From Ignavibacteriales bacterium (lineage in GTDB: Bacteria; Bacteroidota; Ignavibacteria; UBA10030; UBA6906), in the NCBI GenBank assembly GCA_037441705.1, contig JBBIRR010000001.1:141919-205918 (forward strand): DNA of 64,000 nt, written 5' to 3'. How positions within the stretch are numbered: the stretch's first letter is position 1; every line of letters starts with the position of its first letter. Positions 2,529 to 61,956 of this stretch are shown here, one piece after another. Under the pieces are notes generated by a model. The model was not told the origin of the DNA. It was given only the letters and a program-made list of their open reading frames with translations, and did no database searches. The position numbers and the translations under genes were made by a program.

Positions 2529-4592
2529 TCATTTCCGGAACACAAGATTCCGCACCAACTTCGTCATGTCATAGGGTGCCGGCTCGCCGCCGAGGTAGCG
2601 GTGGAACCAGTCGAGATGCGCGTTGTAGTACAGAGGCATGGACTTCACATGACTGGGCCAGTGGCCGTCATTCTTGAACACGATCAAACGCGAAGGGACG
2701 CCCATCTTTTGCAGGCCGGTGAAGAACTCGAGACTCTGCGTGTAGGGCACGCGATAATCTTGTTCACCCGTAATGACAAGGCACGGCGTCTTGAAGTTCT
2801 TGACGTAATTGTTCGGAGAAAGTTTCTGGTAGAGGTCGGACGTCCAGGGCGTTCCGCCGAGATCCCATTCCGGAAACCACAACTCTTCCGTCGCGCCATA
2901 CATCGCCGTGAGATTGTACACGCCCATCATGCACGCGATTGCCTTGAAGCGATCGGTATTGCCTTCCAGCCACATCATCATGTAGCCGCCGTAGGACCAG
3001 CCCATCGCGCCCATGCGTCCGGCATCAACATACGGGAGTTTCGCCAGCGAGTCGGTCACGGCCATGACGTCCTGATACACTTTTCCGTTCCAGTCCTTGG
3101 AGATCGCCTCGGTAAAGGCCTGGCCGTACCCGGTGGAACCGTGGGGATTGGGAAATGCAACGATGTAGCCGGCACCGGGATACACCTGCCAATCGCCGCG
3201 GAAGCCGTCGGTCCACTGCGACTGCGGGCCTCCGTGGACGTTGAGAATGAGCGGATATTTCTTCGTCGGATCAAAATTGTGCGGGGTAACGATGAACGTA
3301 TGAATCAGTTTCCCGGTCGGCGACGGAATCCAGAGTTCTTGCGCGGGGCGAATATCAACCGCATCTGCTATCTCTTTATTGAAGAAGGTGAGCCGCTTCA
3401 GGTTCTTCCCGTCCGTATCAACACGCCACAGTTCTCGCGGTTCGCCCACGGAGCGTCGCACGAGGGCGATGGATTTCCCATCGGGCGAGATGGCGAACGC
3501 GTCGATGGTTCTCGCATTGATCACCTCTGTAATGCGCCCCGATGCGATGTCGACGCGGAAGAGCGGCACCGTTCCCTTCACGTCGGCAGTAAAGAAAATA
3601 CTCTTTGAATCCGGCGCCCAGCGAAACCCGTTCACCCAGTAATCAAACGCGTCGGTCAGAACGCGAATGTTCTCCGTCTTCCGATCGTACAACGCGAGAC
3701 GAAAGCGATCGGACTCGAAGCCGGGCACGGTTTGCATCCTGAAAGCGATGTACCTGCCGTCGGGCGAGTAGAGCGGATCGCCGTCGAACGCCCTGTTCGT
3801 CGCAGTGATGTTGCGCGGCGTGCCGCCCGCAACAGGCACAAGCCACAAATCCTTGTTCGTCGAGGAGGCTTCATCCGCATCGTGATTGGACGTGACACAC
3901 AACTCGGATCCATCAGGCGAGAAGGCAAAGCCTTCACCACCAACCGACCAGGCGGGCCAGTCAAAGTCGCCCGGCGTGAGATCGCGATAGCTCTTCGTAT
4001 CGCGATCGAACAGGAAGGTGTGGGCTCGTTTTCCATCCTTCCAGAAATTCCAATGGCGGTACAACAATCTGTCGGCCATATGCGCTTGCACCGGACCGTC
4101 ATCCAATCCCGATTGATTCTTCTTGTTGCAGGCGTCGTCGGCGCCGCATTCGGGAAAGACAAGCGACGAAAAGCCGATATGCCTTCCTGCCCATCGCACG
4201 TTGTCCGCCCCCATCGAAAAGCCGGTAAGCTGGACCGGCTCTCCGCCTTCGAGGGACATCAACCACGCCTGCGAGCCGTCCTTTCGATTCGATGTGAAGA
4301 GAATGGACATGCCATCCGGCGAGAACAAAGGCTTCGTGTCTGCCGCCGGATCGCTTGTCAGTCGCCGCACCTGACTTCCATCCGCGTTGATGAGATAGAT
4401 GTCGGTATTGCTTTTGCCTTCCTCCAAAAAATCTTCCTTCACCGTGAAGACAATGCGTTTGCCGTCCGGAGAAAACTGTGGATTCTCCACGGTCTTGATT
4501 TTGTAGAGATCGGCAATCGTGAAGGCGCGCTTTTGTGCCACGCCGCTCGCGGAAAGAACGAGCGTCAGGAGAATGATGCTATAGGATTTCAT
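2529..4592 (-). CDS. Secreted S9-family serine peptidase with N-terminal TolB-like beta-propeller
   Basis: Signal peptide MKSYSIILLTLVLSASGVAQ. Repeated xSPDG propeller motifs (FSPDGKRIVF, FSPDGMSILF, YSPDGRYIAF, ISPDGKSIAL). C-terminal alpha/beta-hydrolase with nucleophile elbow GWSYGGYM and a GHW histidine. Confidence 0.85.
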   Translation of the reverse strand: MKSYSIILLTLVLSASGVAQKRAFTIADLYKIKTVENPQFSPDGKRIVFTVKEDFLEEGKSNTDIYLINADGSQVRRLTSDPAADTKPLFSPDGMSILFTSNRKDGSQAWLMSLEGGEPVQLTGFSMGADNVRWAGRHIGFSSLVFPECGADDACNKKNQSGLDDGPVQAHMADRLLYRHWNFWKDGKRAHTFLFDRDTKSYRDLTPGDFDWPAWSVGGEGFAFSPDGSELCVTSNHDADEASSTNKDLWLVPVAGGTPRNITATNRAFDGDPLYSPDGRYIAFRMQTVPGFESDRFRLALYDRKTENIRVLTDAFDYWVNGFRWAPDSKSIFFTADVKGTVPLFRVDIASGRITEVINARTIDAFAISPDGKSIALVRRSVGEPRELWRVDTDGKNLKRLTFFNKEIADAVDIRPAQELWIPSPTGKLIHTFIVTPHNFDPTKKYPLILNVHGGPQSQWTDGFRGDWQVYPGAGYIVAFPNPHGSTGYGQAFTEAISKDWNGKVYQDVMAVTDSLAKLPYVDAGRMGAMGWSYGGYMMMWLEGNTDRFKAIACMMGVYNLTAMYGATEELWFPEWDLGGTPWTSDLYQKLSPNNYVKNFKTPCLVITGEQDYRVPYTQSLEFFTGLQKMGVPSRLIVFKNDGHWPSHVKSMPLYYNAHLDWFHRYLGGEPAPYDMTKLVRNLVFRK

Positions 4593-4693
4593 CGTGTTTC
4601 CTCAGTGAGTTGGTAGAAGGTGGATGGAATTAGACCTGGACTCGCGGAGATGGCTCGACGTTCTCGGAGAAGGCATGAAACCGGCGCTGAGGA

Positions 4694-5080
4694 TTACGGG
4701 CCGCGCTCCAATCGTGCCTGCAGCCGCGTGGTGATAACGTGGCACTCATCCTTCGAGACGACAACGTTCGCCTGTGTCCACTCTCGGTATCCGGGCTTGC
4801 GCACGACAACCGTGTAGATGCCGGGCCGCTCAAACGCCCCGACCATCGTCAACGCACCCTGCGGCGGAAGGGTGGGAAACACGCGCAGGGTGTCCACAAA
4901 CAAACCCTCTTGCGCCAATCCGATGGCGCCTTCCGCGGCCGGTTCACCGGTGAGAGCATCTCGCACGTCTACCTCGATGCCGGCACGCGCTTCCGTCGTA
5001 CAAATCCTTCCGGGAAGCCCGTCATCTTTGCAACTCGAAAACAGCACGACCGCCGCGAACAAAGCAGCACCCTTGCTCAT
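4694..5080 (-). CDS. Lipoprotein with carboxypeptidase-regulatory-like (CarbopepD_reg) domain
   Basis: Lipobox-like LFSSCKDD after a signal peptide. PGIYTVVVRKPGYREW is a typical CarbopepD_reg beta-sandwich segment. GGAGG lies immediately upstream of the start. Confidence 0.55.
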   Translation of the reverse strand: MSKGAALFAAVVLFSSCKDDGLPGRICTTEARAGIEVDVRDALTGEPAAEGAIGLAQEGLFVDTLRVFPTLPPQGALTMVGAFERPGIYTVVVRKPGYREWTQANVVVSKDECHVITTRLQARLERGP

Positions 5081-5088
5081 TGCCCCTC

Positions 5089-7413
5089 CTACCTTGCATT
5101 GAACTTCGCTTTGAGATCCTCGAGCGTAAAATGTTTTTCCGGCGGCTTCTCGTGCTTCGCTTCCGGTACGCTTTCCGGCTTTTGCTCCTGCTTCTTTTTC
5201 GCGGGCTTCGCACCCTTTTCTTTTTTGGTCGGCTTCTCCTTGCGCGGCCGTGGGGGCGCATTCGGCGACTTCATCGTCAGGCTAATGCGCTTCAATGTCG
5301 CGTTCACCTCGAGCACCCGCACCTTGACGATCTGCCCGACCTTCACCACTTTCTTCGGATCGGCAACGTACTTGTCTGCAAGCTGTGAGACGTGCACGAG
5401 TCCGTCCTGATGCACGCCGATATCAACGAAGGCTCCGAAGTTGGCAACGTTCGTCACGACGCCCTCAAGCTCCATTCCCGGTTTCAGGTCGGCAATGTCT
5501 TTTACATCTTCCTTGAATTTTGGGGAGACAAACTCCGCGCGCGGGTCCCGTCCGGGCTTCAGCAACTCGTTGATGATGTCGCGAACCGTAGGCTCGCCGG
5601 CCGTTTCCGTGACGTAGCGTTTGATGTCGAGCGCCTGCAGCTTGTCGGCAACCTCGGGCACCCTGTCCAGCGTCACACCAAGGTCCTGCAGGATTCGTTC
5701 GGCGATGTGGTAACTTTCGGGGTGAACTGCCGAATTATCGAGAGGATTATCGCCGTTGCGGATGCGGAGAAATCCCGCGGCCTGTTCGAATGCCTTCGGC
5801 CCGAACTGCGGCACGTTCATCAACTCCTGCCGGTTGCGGAAGGGACCGTGATCTTCACGATACTTCACGATGTTGCGTGCGCTGCCCTTGTTCAATCCCG
5901 ACACGTACTTCAGCAACTCGACCGAAGCCAGATTCAGGTCAACGCCGACGTAGTTCACGCAGCTTTCGACCGTCTCTCCCAACTTCTTCTTGAGCAGCTT
6001 CTGATCCACATCGTGCTGGTATTGCCCGACGCCGATGGATTTGGGATCAATCTTGACAAGCTCGGCAAGGGGATCCTGCAGGCGTCGCGCGATGCTGATG
6101 GCGCCGCGAATGGTGAGATCGAGTTTGGGAAACTCTTGAATCGCGACGTGGCTTGCCGAGTACACCGACGCGCCCGCCTCACTCACCAACACTTTGATCG
6201 GCGGCTTCTCCAACTCCTTGATCACCTCGCCGATGAACTCGTCGGTTTCGCGCCCGGCCGTACCGTTGCCGATGGCGATGAGTTCCACATTGTGCTTCAC
6301 AATCAAATCGCGTATCACCTGCCCTGCCTGCAGGCGCTGCGCCTCGGAATGATGCGGGTAGATGGTCGCATCCTCGAGGAATTTGCCCGTTTCGCTCACG
6401 ACGGCGACCTTGCAGCCGGTGCGCAAGCCGGGATCAATCCCCATCGTGGGCTTCATGCCGGCAGGGCTGGAGAGCAACAGCGCACGCAAATTCTCCTCGA
6501 ATGTTTTGATGGATTCCCGATCGGCATATTCCTTTTTCTCCACCCGCACATCGTTCTCTAACGAGGGCCTCATGAGACGTTCGAAGGCGTCCTTGAGCAT
6601 CGCTTGATAGAACGCGGCCACCGCCGGTGCCTGCGTGTGAAGCTCCTGTTGCTCGAGGTAGCGCAGCGCCGCGGCTTCATCGAACTGCAAGCTCACGGTC
6701 AGCACGCCTTCGTGTTCGCCGCGCAGCAGTGCCAGCATGTTGTGGGCGTGGATATCCCGCACGCGCACTTTGTACTCGCGGTACATCTCGAACTTCGTCG
6801 TTCCCGGAGGAAAGTCATCCTTCACCTTTGAAACAAAGAAGCCCTCTTTCATCAGGTACTGCCGCAGATGCGCGCGGAGATGCGCTTTCTCCGAGACTTC
6901 CTCTGCGAGGATGTCGGATGCGCCTGCAAGTGCCTCCGCCGCTGTAGGAACACCTTTTTCTGGGTTGATGTATTTTGCGGCTTCTTCCTCCAGCGACGCC
7001 GCGGGAGATTCAGGAACGTTCAGGGATTGGATGAATGCCGCGAGAGGTTCGAGGCCTTTTTCTCGCGCCTCGGTTGCGCGCGTCCGTTTCTTCGGCTTGA
7101 AGGGAAGGTACAGATCTTCGAGTGTCGTCTTGTCCAACGTCGCCTCGATCGCTGCGCGAAGCGCGTCGGTCAGCTTCCCCTGTGCTTCGATCGCGCTGAG
7201 AACAGTCTGCTTGCGCTGTTCGAGTTCGGTGAGATAGGCAAATCGGTCGAAGAGCTTGCGCAATCGCGTTTCGTCCATCCCGCCCGTTCGCTCTTTGCGA
7301 TACCGGGCGATGAACGGCACCGTGGCACCGTCGGCGTGGAGGGCAAGCGCATTCTGAACATAGTGAAGTTTGAGGGACAGCTCGCGGGCGAGGCGTTCGG
7401 GGATGTTAAGCAT
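5089..7413 (-). CDS. tex: Transcription accessory protein Tex (S1 RNA-binding domain protein)
   Basis: Conserved N-terminus after MLNIPERLARELSLK...VPFIARYRKE. YqgF/RuvC-like and HhH regions are present. A C-terminal S1 domain (GMELEGVVTNVANFGAFVDIG) is followed by a Lys-rich tail. Start set at ATG 7413; the ORF-track extension to 7680 is not Tex-like. Confidence 0.85.
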   Translation of the reverse strand: MLNIPERLARELSLKLHYVQNALALHADGATVPFIARYRKERTGGMDETRLRKLFDRFAYLTELEQRKQTVLSAIEAQGKLTDALRAAIEATLDKTTLEDLYLPFKPKKRTRATEAREKGLEPLAAFIQSLNVPESPAASLEEEAAKYINPEKGVPTAAEALAGASDILAEEVSEKAHLRAHLRQYLMKEGFFVSKVKDDFPPGTTKFEMYREYKVRVRDIHAHNMLALLRGEHEGVLTVSLQFDEAAALRYLEQQELHTQAPAVAAFYQAMLKDAFERLMRPSLENDVRVEKKEYADRESIKTFEENLRALLLSSPAGMKPTMGIDPGLRTGCKVAVVSETGKFLEDATIYPHHSEAQRLQAGQVIRDLIVKHNVELIAIGNGTAGRETDEFIGEVIKELEKPPIKVLVSEAGASVYSASHVAIQEFPKLDLTIRGAISIARRLQDPLAELVKIDPKSIGVGQYQHDVDQKLLKKKLGETVESCVNYVGVDLNLASVELLKYVSGLNKGSARNIVKYREDHGPFRNRQELMNVPQFGPKAFEQAAGFLRIRNGDNPLDNSAVHPESYHIAERILQDLGVTLDRVPEVADKLQALDIKRYVTETAGEPTVRDIINELLKPGRDPRAEFVSPKFKEDVKDIADLKPGMELEGVVTNVANFGAFVDIGVHQDGLVHVSQLADKYVADPKKVVKVGQIVKVRVLEVNATLKRISLTMKSPNAPPRPRKEKPTKKEKGAKPAKKKQEQKPESVPEAKHEKPPEKHFTLEDLKAKFNAR

Positions 7414-56645: not shown

Positions 56646-58154
56646 ATGTCACTCGCGGCAGAAGTACCCTCCATCGCCTCTGCAACAAAATCCTCCAACG
56701 GCGTTCGTGTGTTGATGAACTATGTGAACGGCTCGTGGGTGGACGCAAGAACCGGAGAGTTCCAACCTGTCATGAATCCTTCAATCGGGCAGCAGATTGC
56801 CCGGGTGCCGCTCTCGCTGCCGGAGGATGTTGATGCGGCAGTGCGCGCCGCGCGGGCGGCCTTCCCCGCATGGTCGGCAACGCCCATCAAGGAACGTGTG
56901 CAGGTTTTCTTCCGCTACAAGCGCTTGATGGAAGACCATCTGCAGGAGCTTGCCGCACTGGTGCATGAAGAAAACGGCAAGACGATGAGCGAGGCAATCG
57001 CCGAAATCGAAAAGGCGATCGAAGTAACGGAGTTCGCATGCTCGATGCCGCAGCTTGTGACGGGAGAGATTCTCGAGGTGAGCAAAGGGGTCGAGTGCAG
57101 AATTGATCGCTATCCTGTCGGGGTCGTCGCCTCGATCACGCCGTTCAACTTTCCCCACATGGTCCCGAACTGGACGATCCCGAATGCACTGGTGCTGGGC
57201 AATACGATGATCCTCAAGCCATCCGAGCTTGTGCCGCTCAGTTCCATCCGCATCGCGGAACTGCTGAAGGAAGCCGGCCTTCCCGACGGCGTGTTCAACA
57301 TCGTGCACGGCGGACAAACAGCAGTCGAAACAATTTGCGACCATCCGGGCATTGACGCACTCACGTTCGTTGGCTCGACGCGCGTCGCAAAGCTTGTGTA
57401 CGCACGCGCGACGTCGCACTTCAAGCGAGCGCTCTGTTTGGGCGGGGCGAAGAATCACCTCATCGTCCTTCCCGACGCGCATGAGGAAATGGCAGCGTCC
57501 AATATCGCCGCCTCGATGAGTGGCTGCGCCGGTCAACGCTGCATGGCCGCTTCGGCCATGGTCGCCGTCGGCAACGTGGACCACATCATCAAGCGATTGT
57601 GTGAAGAAGCAAAGAAGATCATCCCCGGGAAAAATCTCGGCGCCGTCATCTCGAAGAAAGCGAAGGAACGCATCGAGGGCTATATCACCGAAGCCGAACA
57701 GCAAGGGGCAAAAGTTCTCGTTGACGGACGGAACTATGTGGTCCAAGGAAAGGAGGAAGGCTTCTACGTGGGGCCAACAGTGATTGACCACGTTCGTCCG
57801 GAAATGCGTATTGCGAACGAGGAGGTGTTCGGACCGGTTCTTGCCATCATGCGCGTCAACACGGTTGATGAGGCGCTAAAGATTGAGAACAACAATCCGT
57901 ACGGCAATGCGGCATCGGTGTTCACGCAAAGCGGGGGCGCTGCCCGCTACGTGATCGAGCGTGCAAGTGCGGGTATGATCGGCGTGAACATCGGCGTGCC
58001 CGTCCCACGAGAACCGTTCTCGTTCGGCGGATGGAATGAGTCGAAGTTCGGTGCGTGCGACATCACCGGCAAAAGCTCCATCGAGTTTCTCACCAAGCCG
58101 AAGAAGACCACCATCAAGTGGAATCCGGAATCGCGTGTGAATTGGATGAGTTAG
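56646..58154 (+). CDS. mmsA: CoA-acylating methylmalonate/malonate-semialdehyde dehydrogenase
   Basis: ALDH fold with the MmsA-type ITPFNFPHMVPNW segment and catalytic Cys in LCLGGAKN. AAAGGAG RBS 8 nt upstream. Confidence 0.8.
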   Translation: MSLAAEVPSIASATKSSNGVRVLMNYVNGSWVDARTGEFQPVMNPSIGQQIARVPLSLPEDVDAAVRAARAAFPAWSATPIKERVQVFFRYKRLMEDHLQELAALVHEENGKTMSEAIAEIEKAIEVTEFACSMPQLVTGEILEVSKGVECRIDRYPVGVVASITPFNFPHMVPNWTIPNALVLGNTMILKPSELVPLSSIRIAELLKEAGLPDGVFNIVHGGQTAVETICDHPGIDALTFVGSTRVAKLVYARATSHFKRALCLGGAKNHLIVLPDAHEEMAASNIAASMSGCAGQRCMAASAMVAVGNVDHIIKRLCEEAKKIIPGKNLGAVISKKAKERIEGYITEAEQQGAKVLVDGRNYVVQGKEEGFYVGPTVIDHVRPEMRIANEEVFGPVLAIMRVNTVDEALKIENNNPYGNAASVFTQSGGAARYVIERASAGMIGVNIGVPVPREPFSFGGWNESKFGACDITGKSSIEFLTKPKKTTIKWNPESRVNWMS

Positions 58155-58173
58155 CAAGGTAAACGTCTCGGAA

Positions 58174-58205
58174 ATGGAGTGTTGGAGTTCTGGAGTTGTG
58201 GGGGT
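58174..58205. repeat. GGAGTNNN octamer array (left inverted arm of the element carrying the four-helix-bundle gene)
   Basis: GGAGTgtt GGAGTtct GGAGTtgt GGGGGttc. Inverted relative to the array at 58721-58820. Confidence 0.5.
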
Positions 58206-58277
58206 TCCATTACATCCCTGTGGTGGACGGAGGCTTCAAGTGAGAATCTATTGCGGACCGGAAATCCGGAGTTGCAA

Positions 58278-58718
58278 ATGACCGAATATACGAAACGAAA
58301 GAACGTCAACCGCGGCTACATGAAGCTTGATGTCTGGCAGAATAGCATCGAGCTTTACAAGATCGTTCACAACATTGTTTACAAGGAATCCCAATTGGAT
58401 TTCAAAATCCGGTCACAGATCGACGACGCCGCTCATTCCGTCTCGAGCAACATCGCCGAAGGTTATGCAAGAAGATCAATCCACGAGTACATCCAGCACC
58501 TTTATGTTGCTGCCGGGTCACTTGCAGAAACACTCACCCGAACAATTGGACTGATGGTAACAGGTCAGATATCTGGAAAACAGTTCGAGCACATTGATGA
58601 GATGCATTATGAAGTGGAGAACAAACTGATCCGACTCATAGAAAGCTTGGAGCATAAACGTGACACCGGCTCCTGGGTCAACAAGATATCAGAACCCATA
58701 GACGTATACAACCCGTAG
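58278..58718 (+). CDS. Four-helix-bundle protein (TIGR02436 / 23S rRNA intervening-sequence protein family)
   Basis: LDVWQNSIELYKIVHNI...AAHSVSSNIAEGYARRS..EYIQHLYVAAGSLAETLT matches the family pattern (LxVWQ...AxSIxxNIAEG...GSxxE) as I remember it. Confidence 0.65.
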   Translation: MTEYTKRKNVNRGYMKLDVWQNSIELYKIVHNIVYKESQLDFKIRSQIDDAAHSVSSNIAEGYARRSIHEYIQHLYVAAGSLAETLTRTIGLMVTGQISGKQFEHIDEMHYEVENKLIRLIESLEHKRDTGSWVNKISEPIDVYNP

Positions 58719-58720
58719 CT

Positions 58721-58820
58721 CCCACCACTCCAATACCCCAATACTCCAATACTCCATTACTCCATTACTCCACTACTCCATCACTGCGTCACTCCGTCAC
58801 CCCATCACTCTACCCTCCTC
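58721..58820. repeat. Tandem octanucleotide repeat array (about 11 units of ACTCCAnT / CCAnTACT)
   Basis: CCACCACT CCAATACC CCAATACT CCAATACT CCATTACT CCATTACT CCACTACT CCATCACT ... lies in the convergent intergenic region. It is the reverse complement of the GGAGTNNN units upstream of the four-helix-bundle gene. Confidence 0.7.
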
Positions 58821-60229
58821 CTCATCATCGCCGCATACACCGCGAACGCGACCGCAAAGCCGACGAACCAGGCGTAGTCATAGAGAAAGCGCAACGGCTC
58901 CACCAACAAGCCGATGAGCGCGACCACGACGCCTGCGGCAAGGGCAAGGAGCGCCCGAAGATTGAACCCCCCTGCAAACTCATACTCTCCCCCGCGTAGA
59001 TACAGATCACGCACGCTGAGGGTTCTCTTCCGCACGAGATAGTAATCCGCGATCAACACACCGGCGATGGGACCGAGAAAACTCGAGTACCCAACAAGCC
59101 AGCCGAAGATGTACGTACCGTAATCGGACAGCAGCTTCCACGGCATCATCACGATGCCCAGCACGGCCGTGATGAGGCCGCCGGTTTTGAAGCTGATTTT
59201 TCGCGGCAGCAGATTGGCAAAGTCGTTTGCCGGCGAGACAACATTTGCAGCAATATTCGTCGTGAGCGTTGCAACGACAAGAGCAATGAGCGAGAGAAGG
59301 ATGACGATGGGACTTTCGAACTTCGACAGCAAGACGACCGGATCCCAAATCGCTTCGCCAAAAAGCACCACGGTGGCGGAGGTGACCGCCACACCGATGA
59401 ACGAGTACAGAGCCATCGTCGGCGGCAGGCCGATGGCCTGACCAATGATCTGCGCACGCTGGCTTCGGGCGTAGCGCGTAAAGTCGGGAATGTTGAGCGA
59501 GAGCGTTGCCCAGAAGCCGACCATGCCGGTGAGCGACGGCATGAAGAACGCCCAGAACTCGCCGGCCGTCTGGAACTTGCTCGGCTGGGCAAACATGGGA
59601 CCGAAGCTGCCGATGCGCGTATAAGCCCACGCCAACAGCGCCAGCCCAACAATGATCAGAAACGGCGCGGCAAGCGCTTCCAGCCATTTGATTGATTCCG
59701 TTCCTTTGATGATGAAGTAGACGTTCATTCCCCAGAAAATGAGAAACCCGATCGCCGGTCCCCATTCGAAAATAGCCCACTGCGGAAGCAGTAGGACGAT
59801 CAGCGAGTTGAATGCCTGTCCCCCAATCCATGTTTGAATGCCGAACCACCCGCAGGCAACAACAGCGCGCAGCAATGCGGGCACATTCGAGCCGAGCGTC
59901 CCGAATGAGGCACGCGCAAGAACCGGAAACGGAATGCCGTACTTCGTTCCTGCGTGCGCGTTCAACACCATTGGAATGAGCACAATGATGTTACCGAGCG
60001 TGATGGTGAGCAGCGCCTGCCACCAATTCATGCCGCCGGCAATCAATCCGCTGGCAAGCATGTAGGTGGGGATGCAGACGCTCATGCCGATCCAGAGTGC
60101 GGCGATGTGGTACGTGCCCCACGTGCGCTGAGCGATTTTGGTCGGGGCGATGTCGGGATTGATGAGAGGACTGTGGTTGACGGAGGAGAGATCAGCCTCA
60201 ACGAGTTCGGAGGTTACCTGCGTTTGCAT
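58805..60229 (-). CDS. NCS1-family nucleobase/hydantoin:cation symporter
   Basis: 12-TM protein. The N-terminal region ...RTWGTYHIAALWIGMSVCIPTYMLASGLIAGGMNWWQAL resembles Mhp1/PucI/CodB-type NCS1 transporters. Confidence 0.75.
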   Translation of the reverse strand: MQTQVTSELVEADLSSVNHSPLINPDIAPTKIAQRTWGTYHIAALWIGMSVCIPTYMLASGLIAGGMNWWQALLTITLGNIIVLIPMVLNAHAGTKYGIPFPVLARASFGTLGSNVPALLRAVVACGWFGIQTWIGGQAFNSLIVLLLPQWAIFEWGPAIGFLIFWGMNVYFIIKGTESIKWLEALAAPFLIIVGLALLAWAYTRIGSFGPMFAQPSKFQTAGEFWAFFMPSLTGMVGFWATLSLNIPDFTRYARSQRAQIIGQAIGLPPTMALYSFIGVAVTSATVVLFGEAIWDPVVLLSKFESPIVILLSLIALVVATLTTNIAANVVSPANDFANLLPRKISFKTGGLITAVLGIVMMPWKLLSDYGTYIFGWLVGYSSFLGPIAGVLIADYYLVRKRTLSVRDLYLRGGEYEFAGGFNLRALLALAAGVVVALIGLLVEPLRFLYDYAWFVGFAVAFAVYAAMMRRRVE

Positions 60230-60567: not shown

Positions 60568-61956
60568 TCACCCACTTGCTAACGGTTCGCGTTTGATGAA
60601 TTTGCCGCGGCCCACCGTCCCGACAAACTTTCCGTCACGCGCCGCAACTTCGCCGCGGACGGTAACCACGTGCGGCCTGCCTTTGATCTGCCATCCCTCG
60701 AACGCGCTGTAGTCAACGTTGAGCTGATGCGTGCGCGCCGAAATCGTTCCGCGATACTGCGGATCGTACACCACCACATCGGCATCACTGCCGACGGCGA
60801 TGGTGCCCTTGCGCGGGTACAAGCCGAACAACCGGGCCGCCTGCGTGCTGGCACAATTCACAAGTGTGTTCAGGTCAAGACGACCTTCGCAGACCCCGTA
60901 GGTGTAGAGCAAGTTGATGCGATCTTCGAGCGAGGGGATGCCGTTCGGTATTTTGGTGAAGTCGTTGCGTCCCATCTCTTTTTGTCCGACAAAATCGAAC
61001 GGCGCATGATCGGTGGCAACCGTTGAGACAAGTCCCTGACGTATCGCGTTCCAGAACACAGCCTGATTCCGCTTGTCGCGCAGCGGCGGGGACATGACGT
61101 ACTTTGCCCCTTCGAAGTTCGGCAGCTCGGCGTAACTTTTGTCCAGCAGTAAATACTGAATCAATGTCTCGACCCGCACATGCAGGCCGCGCTGCATGGC
61201 AAGCAGCGCTTCTTGCAGCGCTTCTTCACAGCTAGTATGGACAATGTAGCAGTGCGTGCCGTGCAGCTCGGCAAAGGTCAGCAGATGATGCACGCCTTCC
61301 GCCTCGATGCGCGGGGGGCGGCTCCAATAGTGCCATTCGGGTCCCGTCTTTCCTTCGCCGAGCAGCTTCTGCTGCAGTTCGAACACGGCGTCCGCATTCT
61401 CGCAGTGTGCCGTAACAGTAACGCCGAGTTCTTTCGCGAGCCGCATGGTGTGGTACAGCTCCTCGTCCGTAATGCCGAACGCGCCTTTGTATGCGAGGAA
61501 CACTTTGAAACTCGTTATCCCGCTGCGGACGATTTCCCTCAACTCCCCTTCAGTCTTCTTGTCGAACCGCGTCACGGCTTGATGAAATGTGAAATCGCAT
61601 GCACTCTTGCCCTCGGCTTTTCCTCGCCACAACTCGAATCCATCGCGCAGCGGGTTCTCGGCTCTCGACTGACAGATCATTTCGATGAACGTCGTCGTCC
61701 CTCCAACGAGTGCCGCCTTGCTTGCCGTTTCATGCGTGTCTTTCGCGAACGTTCCCATGAACGGCAGATAGATGTGCACGTGCGGATCAATGAAGCCGGG
61801 AAAGACATACTTTCCCGTCGCATCAATTATCGTTGCGTTCGGCGGCGCGTCCAGGTGCTTGCCGATGCGAGTGATTTGTTCATTCTCGCAATAGATATCT
61901 GCCACGTAGTCCTGATCGGCAGTGATGATCCGACCGTTTTTGATGAGGATGGACAT
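60568..61956 (-). CDS. Dihydropyrimidinase / D-hydantoinase (cyclic amidohydrolase)
   Basis: GFIDPHVHIY (metal-binding His pair), FKVFLAYKG (carboxylated Lys) and VATDHAPF. 462 aa. Confidence 0.85.
   Translation of the reverse strand: MSILIKNGRIITADQDYVADIYCENEQITRIGKHLDAPPNATIIDATGKYVFPGFIDPHVHIYLPFMGTFAKDTHETASKAALVGGTTTFIEMICQSRAENPLRDGFELWRGKAEGKSACDFTFHQAVTRFDKKTEGELREIVRSGITSFKVFLAYKGAFGITDEELYHTMRLAKELGVTVTAHCENADAVFELQQKLLGEGKTGPEWHYWSRPPRIEAEGVHHLLTFAELHGTHCYIVHTSCEEALQEALLAMQRGLHVRVETLIQYLLLDKSYAELPNFEGAKYVMSPPLRDKRNQAVFWNAIRQGLVSTVATDHAPFDFVGQKEMGRNDFTKIPNGIPSLEDRINLLYTYGVCEGRLDLNTLVNCASTQAARLFGLYPRKGTIAVGSDADVVVYDPQYRGTISARTHQLNVDYSAFEGWQIKGRPHVVTVRGEVAARDGKFVGTVGRGKFIKREPLASG

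Follow-up and report, generated by a model that had tools for sequence, protein, structure and literature searches.

A four-helix-bundle gene bounded by inverted tandem-repeat arrays in an Ignavibacteriales genome: a probable intervening-sequence-type cassette of protein-coding operons

An array-bounded gene downstream of mmsA

The DNA analyzed is a stretch of 64,000 nucleotides from an Ignavibacteriales bacterium (GenBank assembly GCA_037441705.1, contig JBBIRR010000001.1, positions 141,919 to 205,918), referred to below as the window. Between mmsA and a gene for an NCS1 permease it carries a small open reading frame (ORF) coding for a four-helix-bundle (4HB) protein, bracketed by two arrays of tandem octamers which are reverse complements of each other. 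This architecture is general across the family to which the gene belongs, and is the main result reported here. On the comparisons made below, the element is probably a cassette of the type found in the intervening sequences (IVSs) of 23S rRNA, set in protein-coding operons and defined by covarying inverted tandem arrays.

The 4HB gene (58278..58718, plus strand, as the upstream mmsA) encodes a 146-aa protein which is a bona fide member of the PF05635/TIGR02436 family, scoring 75.1 bits against TIGR02436 (cut-off 24) and 76.1 bits against PF05635 (cut-off 33.8). It is single-copy in the window, and its GC content, about 47%, is some 10 points under that of its neighbours (52-63% in the flanking genes, 56.6% in the window). 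The AF2 monomer model (pLDDT 89.7) has helices at residues 18-37, 42-63, 68-94 and 100-130. Foldseek matched the model best to XCC0516 (2GSC; E=1e-5, TM 0.74/0.91), then to BT_0352 (2RLD; E=7e-4) and to the bAvd structures 4DWL/8UB7; 2GSC and 2RLD were also retrieved by a profile search of PDB sequences. Both 2GSC and Avd are known to be pentamers. Twenty-five residues, mostly polar or aromatic, are invariant across 38 homologues, and the proteins are not notably basic (pI 5.3-9.1). A longer GTG-initiated ORF (58179-58718, 179 aa) was rejected, and the ATG at 58278 preferred as start, because homologues align from its residue 1. The window protein has no PADLOC or PHROG match at E<=0.01, no match to the bAvd Pfam model, and no relatives in 2.9 million viral contigs (IMG/VR). 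Within its subfamily alone, 870 close relatives were detected at E<=1e-3. Most close homologues reside on contigs of just 1-5 kb, which is consistent with arrays, or multiple cassette copies, breaking short-read metagenome assemblies. Outside the Avd proteins of diversity-generating retroelements (DGRs), we know of no function for PF05635.

The 5' arm (58173..58206, plus strand) starts 19 nt past the mmsA stop codon, and is made up by the tandem octamers AATGGAGT GTTGGAGT TCTGGAGT TGTGGGGG, three good xxTGGAGT units and a degenerate one (TGGGGG). Its sense strand is G/T-rich and nearly devoid of C. A spacer, or 5' untranslated region, of 71 nt (58207..58277, plus strand) separates the arm from the ATG, about 46 nt longer than the corresponding spacer of some 25 nt seen upon alignment with the orthologous locus L001. 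The spacer may be a partial duplication: a 16-nt partial direct repeat (75% identity) occurs at the start of the arm (CGGAAATGGAGTGTTG, 58169-58184) and just before the ATG (CGGAAATCCGGAGTTG, 58259-58274).

The 3' arm (58721..58812) begins 2 nt beyond the 4HB stop codon, and is made up by about 11 tandem octamers reading ACTCCAxx on the plus strand, xxTGGAGT on the minus strand, in the order ACTCCAAT ACCCCAAT ACTCCAAT ACTCCATT ACTCCATT ACTCCACT ACTCCATC ACTGCGTC ACTCCGTC ACCCCATC. It is C/A-rich and nearly devoid of G. The three outer units, ACTGCGTC, ACTCCGTC and ACCCCATC, are degenerate, and the end of the arm overlaps the stop codon (58805-58807) of the convergent NCS1 gene.

Both arms were picked up by three routes. 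Tandem Repeats Finder (TRF) reported period-8 arrays at 58175-58201 (3.4 copies), 58727-58780 (6.8 copies, 91% matches) and 58775-58810 (4.5 copies); a repeat search found a run of 10 downstream copies, all in register and exactly 8 nt apart, as well as 31-nt arms (58173-58203 and 58736-58766) which are 81% complementary; and the pattern GGAGTNNNGGAGTNNNGGAGT, three consecutive GGAGTNNN units with at most one mismatch, had 8 matches in the window, all within the two arrays (1 on the plus strand, 7 on the minus strand), against 0 expected in 100 shuffles. No TGGAGT arrays were found by the pattern search elsewhere in the window. L087, in which this element was assembled independently (Logan), shows no difference in the arrays, which are therefore not an assembly artefact. 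A first-pass annotation, made from the letters of the window, had described a 146-aa TIGR02436-like gene between two mutually complementary arrays, with 3-4 units upstream and about 11 ACTCCAnT units downstream. All of this is borne out, save that the downstream array had been drawn to 58820: its last 2-3 units are degenerate, and it ends near 58812.

Upstream lies mmsA (56646-58154, plus strand; TIGR01722, 538.7 bits), downstream the NCS1 permease gene (58805-60229, minus strand), followed by a dihydropyrimidinase gene (60568-61956, minus strand). The cassette had been thought to split the genes of one catabolic pathway; mmsA and the NCS1 gene being convergent, no operon is split at this locus. 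A scan of 57900-59000 gave no relevant sigma-70-like promoter (the host may use other promoters) nor plus-strand terminator, and no T-tract follows the arms in the window. No Rfam family, rRNA included, was matched at gathering level in 57900-59100, only noise being returned at E<=10.

Inverted arrays of fixed polarity across the family

In a scan of one genome per species, 80 loci of 43-77% identity were listed; the set analyzed consists of 81. These reside in 39 unrelated genomic contexts in at least eight phyla, the lineages reached by the scan being Bacteroidota, Ignavibacteria, Calditrichota, Verrucomicrobiota, Acidobacteriota, Marinimicrobia, Poribacteria and WOR-3. The window carries one copy, and two metagenome-assembled genomes (MAGs) contributed two each to the 80 listed loci. 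Among periods 4-13, period 8 was the best in 70 of the 81 upstream flanks and in 63 of the downstream ones, about 10% being expected among ten periods. In nearly all loci, the inverted 5-mer which the two flanks share most often belongs to the TGGAx/GGAxT type, and it occurs three or more times on both sides in 63 of 81, against mostly 1-2 in the direct-orientation control. The repeat is neither unique nor unpaired; more generally, the four checks suggested in the first-pass annotation all turned out in its favour, and neither of the conditions set there to refute it held.

The core of the unit varies by protein clade (TGGAGT, TGGATT/G, TGGAAT, TGGAAG, TGCATG, TGAATG); whatever the core, the units upstream and downstream are reverse complements in every case. 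Paralogs of 30-36% identity (nine of which were confirmed as PF05635), found at the same loci or by other mmsA genes, feature different units and periods, again inverted: GGTTGTACnnn (11 nt), AAGGTTn (7 nt), GGTATAT (7 nt), GAAACGTG, TTGTTGAA, TACGAGn and GAAATTn. In all, about 19 unit types were counted, every one a reverse-complement pair of the same polarity; three different array units lie within 3.2 kb in L075. The same layout is found on finished plasmids of cultured hosts, with AAGGTTT/AAACCTT in Riemerella anatipestifer, AAGGGAA/TTCCCTT in Geminocystis and GGGTGTG/CACACCC in Nostoc punctiforme, which rules out artefacts of MAG assembly. In plasmid pCC7120gamma of Nostoc PCC 7120, arrays flank the gene on both sides but are not clearly inverted; this copy adjoins an ISL3 transposase gene.

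Polarity is constant, whichever strand is read. The first arm is 39% G and 3% C (76 of 77 arrays), the second 39% C and 3.5% G (75 of 77), and the G-rich arm comes first in every unit type, as well as in hairpins devoid of a gene. The latter, formed by inverted octamer or heptamer arrays in intergenic DNA (L013:6870-7060, L142:2125-2260, L165:4945-5017), resemble ORF-less IVSs or miniature inverted-repeat transposable elements; the one in L013, folded over 6860-7070, gives -83 kcal/mol (z = -5). A second complete hairpin, again with the G-rich arm first, follows the 4HB gene in L014 (3004-3110), L077 and L081 (~4444-4600), either replacing the 3' arm or standing beside it.

Cassettes tend to run the same way as the host genes around them. 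Of 75 loci, 70 have an upstream neighbour on the same strand as the 4HB gene, as do 31 of 34 independent contexts (p=0.003, the baseline being 70%). The downstream neighbour shares this direction at 61 of 70 loci, and both neighbours do so in 56 of the 65 cassettes for which both were determined. The distance from the upstream stop codon to the 4HB ATG has a median of 71 nt, largely taken up by the array. In Udaeobacter/Chthoniobacterales the cassette lies between an ABC ATPase gene and its permease gene. In L031 and L176 the first array begins at the stop codon of the ATPase gene, the last unit of this array provides the 4HB start codon (AATGGAGT...), and some 11 nt separate the 3' array from the ATG of the permease gene. 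Co-orientation, together with the lack of room for a promoter, points to a promoterless cassette which would ride on host transcripts.

This orientation bears on the view that the arrays are transcription insulators, the C-rich, G-poor array which a transcript meets as it leaves the cassette being a Rho loading site or, once paired with the G-rich arm, a hairpin terminator, which in the window would stop read-through from mmsA and the 4HB gene from running antisense into NCS1. The skewed composition of upstream and downstream arrays, identical on both strands and in intergenic gene-less hairpins, speaks for this view, and in the window the 11-unit long arm does face the convergent NCS1 gene. 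However, most cassettes lie between co-directional genes, and termination would be polar and harmful inside ATPase/permease pairs of ABC transporters. No T-tract follows the arms, and both the matching 5' arm and the link to a 4HB gene are left unexplained. We regard insulation as very improbable.

Inheritance, unit slippage and turnover at the mmsA 3' site

An orthologous locus, found in a Bacteroidota MAG and five metagenome contigs (L001-L007), encodes a 77%-identical protein in the same aldehyde dehydrogenase (Aldedh) - 4HB - NCS1 arrangement. It features 3-4 ATGGAGTx units upstream and three ACTCCAxx units downstream, decayed units preceding the downstream ones; gene and inverted arrays are thus kept together. 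The non-synonymous divergence of the 4HB gene from the orthologue (dN 0.148) is similar to that of mmsA (0.140), and synonymous sites are saturated (pS 0.77). As judged from these substitution rates, the gene is under purifying selection and has been inherited with its neighbours, and the window copy is old at its site. TGGAGT arrays are found in both lineages, and have been kept, or regenerated, through a divergence which should have erased neutral intergenic sequence.

The number of units is variable, as the first-pass annotation had anticipated. The downstream array has 11 units in the window and 3 in the orthologue. One AACACTCC unit present in five otherwise matching contigs is missing from L005, L001 being among those compared. 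L179 and L180, in which the DNA of the ATPase, 4HB and permease genes is 100% identical, carry 5 and 7 upstream units, respectively, and L181, whose gene and flanks are 98-100% identical to both, carries 4. Arrays behave as variable-number tandem repeat loci evolving by slippage of units; they probably break metagenome assemblies, and may be mistaken for CRISPR-like arrays. In the FLSHclust survey (PMC10910872), '23S rRNA IVP' is an entry of the abbreviation key of the figure on CRISPR-linked domains; the link might stem from tandem repeats scored as CRISPR-like arrays.

Whole-unit changes between identical strains are what functionless microsatellites, born by slippage and persisting beside 4HB genes, would show, and short tandem arrays are common in the intergenic DNA of the same genomes, as heptamer repeats are in bacteria (bioRxiv 10.1101/309039). 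Microsatellites of this sort would hardly be kept in inverted orientation on both sides of a gene across saturated synonymous divergence, nor come in about 19 unit types all paired as reverse complements of the same polarity, nor share period 8 in such a large excess of upstream flanks. This explanation is strongly disfavoured, and the most improbable of those considered.

Sites with and without the cassette were compared in the ATPase/permease group. L178, in which the cassette is absent and the gap measures 109 nt, has ATPase DNA 99.0% identical to that of the cassette-bearing L181; in L172-L175 the empty site is a plain 33-nt spacer with an AAGGAG ribosome-binding site. Neither a target-site duplication nor a clean empty site was found in this set, filled (L176, L179-L181) and empty (L172-L175, L178) sites differing across the whole spacer, and no direct repeat borders the arrays at the L172-L176 and L178-L181 sites. 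Replacement via flanking homology is as likely as transposition.

The spacing between mmsA and NCS1 varies in relatives, one of the checks suggested in the first-pass annotation. In the closest ones (L088/L089; mmsA 87%, NCS1 85% identical) the gap hosts, in place of the 4HB cassette, a 186-aa ORF6N-domain gene (L088:4730-5360). Two copies of a GGAGGTCGCAnnTTGCGACC hairpin accompany this gene in L088, one upstream (4732-4752), the other inside the ORF (5015-5035). In other relatives the gap is 146 nt long, or is 55 nt long and holds a solitary GGTTTCA array. The convergent mmsA-NCS1 gap has the appearance of a place where small accessory genes settle.

More broadly, several relatives carry 4HB genes of other subfamilies at the mmsA 3' site, and one a heptamer array plus a 4HB remnant. 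4HB genes or remnants lie right after the mmsA stop codon in L098, L104, L113, L118, L123, L127 and L135, belonging to at least five subfamilies with their own array units, and arrays with no gene at the same site in L128, L134, L142 and L165. The site is either a hot spot, or the seat of one ancient cassette diverged in place. Some copies are damaged. In L104 (5049-5484) the 4HB gene, of 68% identity and accompanied by a GGAGT/GGAAT array, is broken into two frames, reflecting either a frameshift or a sequencing error. In L123 (4270-4545) a 4HB gene of another subfamily is broken past residue ~55 by a small ORF judged by eye to be GIY-YIG-like (KYYIYILKS...YYTGFTENLDHRLREH...), GAAATTn arrays persisting on both sides. 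In L127 (1700-2060), where the gene is truncated, the 5' array and the first ~60 4HB codons are tandemly duplicated, a pattern suggestive of recombination between arrays. In L165 (4945-6463; GGTATCTG / CAGATACC) and L134 (3063-4991), a gene for a class-III aminotransferase, located downstream of mmsA, has arrays on either side; ordinary metabolic genes can hence be bracketed by such arrays too.

These data can be read as the traces of a DNA-level mobile element, in which inverted arrays would serve as multi-site terminal repeats, as in Tn7, Mu, CACTA elements or the REP pairs around RAYT genes, and the cassette would be moved between intergenic sites by a recombinase encoded elsewhere, or with the 4HB protein as accessory factor. 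One subfamily, of at least 44% identity, spread over so many unrelated contexts and phyla would fit, as would presence/absence at nearly identical flanks, ordinary spacers at empty sites, the occupation of one mmsA 3' site by different 4HB subfamilies, an ORF6N gene or nothing, the low GC content, and the many homologues found, as repeated elements are, on very short contigs. Yet no transposase or integrase is associated with the cassette, no target-site duplication was seen, and the difference between filled and empty sites over the whole spacer is in keeping with a replacement brought about by homologous recombination in the flanks. Cassettes are far from randomly oriented relative to host transcription, the window copy has been inherited vertically long enough for synonymous sites to saturate, relatives are missing from the viral contigs searched, and the window holds a single copy. 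The earlier notion of a selfish or mobile cassette gains indirect support only, as no mobility gene or target-site duplication was found, and movement at the DNA level is considered improbable.

Pairing, protein recognition and the relation to intervening sequences

In both the minimum free energy and the centroid fold of 58155-58830, the 5' array pairs with part of the 3' array, as the first-pass annotation had supposed, the predicted stem being a succession of 6-bp helices with 2x2 internal loops in between. The shorter of the two arms usually has 3-4 units (24-32 nt) when all loci are compared. The explanation we favour, and rate about as likely to be right as wrong, is that of an IVS-type cassette, in which the inverted arrays form the arms of a long-range hairpin and its loop holds a promoterless PF05635 4HB gene. 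The window cassette would be transcribed by read-through from mmsA. In the RNA, the 3-4 units of the 5' arm would base-pair with as many (3-4) of the 11 in the 3' arm, forming a stem of about 24-31 nt and setting the ORF apart in the loop. The stem may be a substrate of RNase III, a platform for the 4HB oligomer, or both, as in the homologous 23S rRNA intervening sequences, and its action would detach or regulate the 4HB mRNA, leaving the host transcript unharmed. A stem made up by tandem units would be self-repairing, because slippage could regrow either arm in any register, which would keep at least some three units able to pair.

The IVS-type cassette is favoured by the architecture itself, its conservation across phyla and paralogs, the covariation of the two arms at the level of the unit, and their fixed polarity. 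Co-orientation with the upstream gene, purifying selection, persistence of the arrays, whole-unit slippage and polymorphism for the presence of the cassette complete the picture.

Several results weigh against pairing as the sole role of the arrays. The two variable positions of the octamer are mostly non-complementary, Watson-Crick pairs accounting for 70.5% in the best register, and mismatches show no G·U bias (155 of G·U type, 187 of A·C type). Compared with column-shuffled arrays, the gain in duplex energy is modest (mean z -0.6, p ~0.001), and the arms of the window do no better than shuffled ones (z +1.0). Arm lengths are weakly correlated (rho 0.21, p 0.07), the window itself having 3-4 units against 11. 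A unit with six fixed and two free positions, and a G-rich arm which always comes first, are unexplained by pairing alone. No Rfam family is matched, and excision by RNase III has been shown only for IVSs of rRNA.

The same features make a serious rival of a second explanation, in which the units are iterons, each recognized in a sequence-specific manner by the 4HB oligomer of its own cassette, either as double-stranded DNA or within a single RNA arm. The opposite orientation of the arrays would serve autoregulation or the assembly of a nucleoprotein complex, and the complementarity of the arms would be the by-product of one asymmetric site used twice. A fixed 6-nt core with two free positions neither complementary nor G·U-biased is a signature of protein recognition, parallels being the (G/U)AG repeats with free spacers bound by TRAP and the heptads of the omega repressor. 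Each paralogous cassette has its own unit, even where three of them crowd into L075, the type of unit follows the protein clade, arms vary in length independently, the invariant residues are mostly polar or aromatic, and Avd, a fold homologue, binds nucleic acid. Specificity is harder to reconcile with arrays such as those of L018, L029 and L013, in which core position 5 is occupied by G, T or A in different units of one array. No protein column was found to track this base apart from phylogeny; columns 37, 134, 49 and 31, candidates for such residues, were discarded as confounded by phylogeny, and fail at the L020 group and at the L018 vs L029 switches. Moreover, the 4HB proteins are not basic, and hairpins without a gene as well as solo arrays occur. 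We consider iterons alone a possible but rather unlikely explanation; they may well be combined with pairing, so that the mechanism may be an RNA stem processed by RNase III, protein-binding iterons, or both.

Pushed further, the association of each paralog with its own unit would make PF05635 proteins the cognate, sequence-specific partners of 7-11-nt intergenic tandem repeats. The gene with its inverted arrays would be the autonomous 'master copy' of an RNA-level, operon-riding element, each paralog perhaps propagating or regulating through its own unit, and ORF-containing rRNA IVSs the special case of elements landed in rRNA. This broader proposal is put forward as a speculation, with a rather small chance of being correct.

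The analogy with 23S rRNA IVSs, drawn in the first-pass annotation, is close. The IVS of Coxiella burnetii (helix 45) contains a PF05635 ORF, and its inverted repeats form a 28-bp terminal stem cut by RNase III, as established by in-vitro assay and rapid amplification of cDNA ends; in its 5' part, upstream of the ATG, tandem GACAGAT heptamers vary in number among strains, and the 5' cleavage site is at the first repeat (PMC4990558). PF05635 ORFs are found also in rRNA insertions of bacteria of the candidate phyla radiation. The window element shares with the IVSs of Leptospira and Coxiella an ORF of about 120-150 aa ('S23p') in a stem loop, terminal inverted repeats, a GC content below that of the host, and tandem repeats in the 5' part, 7 nt long and strain-variable in Coxiella. 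In both, the ORF runs in the direction of host transcription; IVSs are co-transcribed with the host gene, and read-through is likely for the window element. In contrast to IVSs, which are inserted in 23S or 16S rRNA (helix 9, 25 or 45), the window element resides at the mmsA 3' flank and its relatives in protein-coding operons. Its arms are overt tandem arrays, two positions of every unit being unpaired, in place of a near-perfect stem of 28 bp, and its protein is evidently under purifying selection, while the Coxiella ORF is reported to be decaying.

Other systems are more distant. Avd is a pentamer which binds RNA stem-loops beside its own locus (bioRxiv 10.1101/2023.10.23.563531), and the predicted model of the window protein has the same 4HB fold (Foldseek probability 1.0 to 4DWL/8UB7, TM 0.6-0.87). 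Sequence identity is only 12-18%, however, and the window protein, which lacks a bAvd Pfam match, is not strongly basic. The immediate neighbours of its gene are mmsA and NCS1, not a reverse transcriptase, the search for one being confined to these neighbours. No pair of template and variable repeats was noted near the gene, repeats in 58100-58900, the interval scanned, being the octamer arrays and short low-identity two-copy matches. On these neighbours and the missing bAvd match, the window element is not a DGR component.

As in REPtrons, one small gene is bracketed by an inverted, short, lineage-specific repeat which is found also without the gene, and the type of repeat tracks the protein clade. 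Yet the protein is a 4HB, PF05635 being its sole match, and not an HUH/Y1 (IS200/IS605-like) nuclease, the repeats are tandem 7-11-mers and not repetitive extragenic palindromes (REPs), and the TGGAGT unit is not dispersed within the window. In type III toxin-antitoxin systems (ToxIN) a tandem array immediately precedes a small protein gene, is transcribed together with it, and may be bound, as RNA, by the encoded protein. ToxI repeats are however about 36 nt long and on one side only, the toxin has an endoribonuclease fold, and the window protein has no match in PADLOC.

The intergenic heptamer and octamer repeats of Xanthomonas (GGGAATC), Cyanobacteria (STRR-type) and Beggiatoaceae (TAACTGA) are similar in unit size, intergenic location and phyla. 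In Xanthomonas, convergent pairs lying on opposite strands account for 70-75 arrays (PMC4692102), and the function of bacterial heptamer repeats is acknowledged as unknown (bioRxiv 10.1101/309039). In the searched text of the papers on these repeats there is no mention of 4HB or PF05635, whereas arrays of the window type are defined by the gene. Xanthomonas is the source of both XCC0516 and the convergent heptamer pairs. No earlier description of inverted tandem arrays around PF05635 genes outside rRNA was found in the searchable, non-subscription literature.

The layout described here, in which a G-rich array, a 4HB gene and a complementary C-rich array follow one another within host operons, offers a first clue to the role of the very large PF05635 family, and links the question of what these proteins do to that of what intergenic tandem repeats are for. 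Carriers are found among cultivable bacteria, including Riemerella anatipestifer, Nostoc punctiforme (pNPUN01, NPUN_RS34290) and Xanthomonas campestris (XCC0516), and ORF-bearing IVSs of rRNA would be one instance of a much wider type of cassette.

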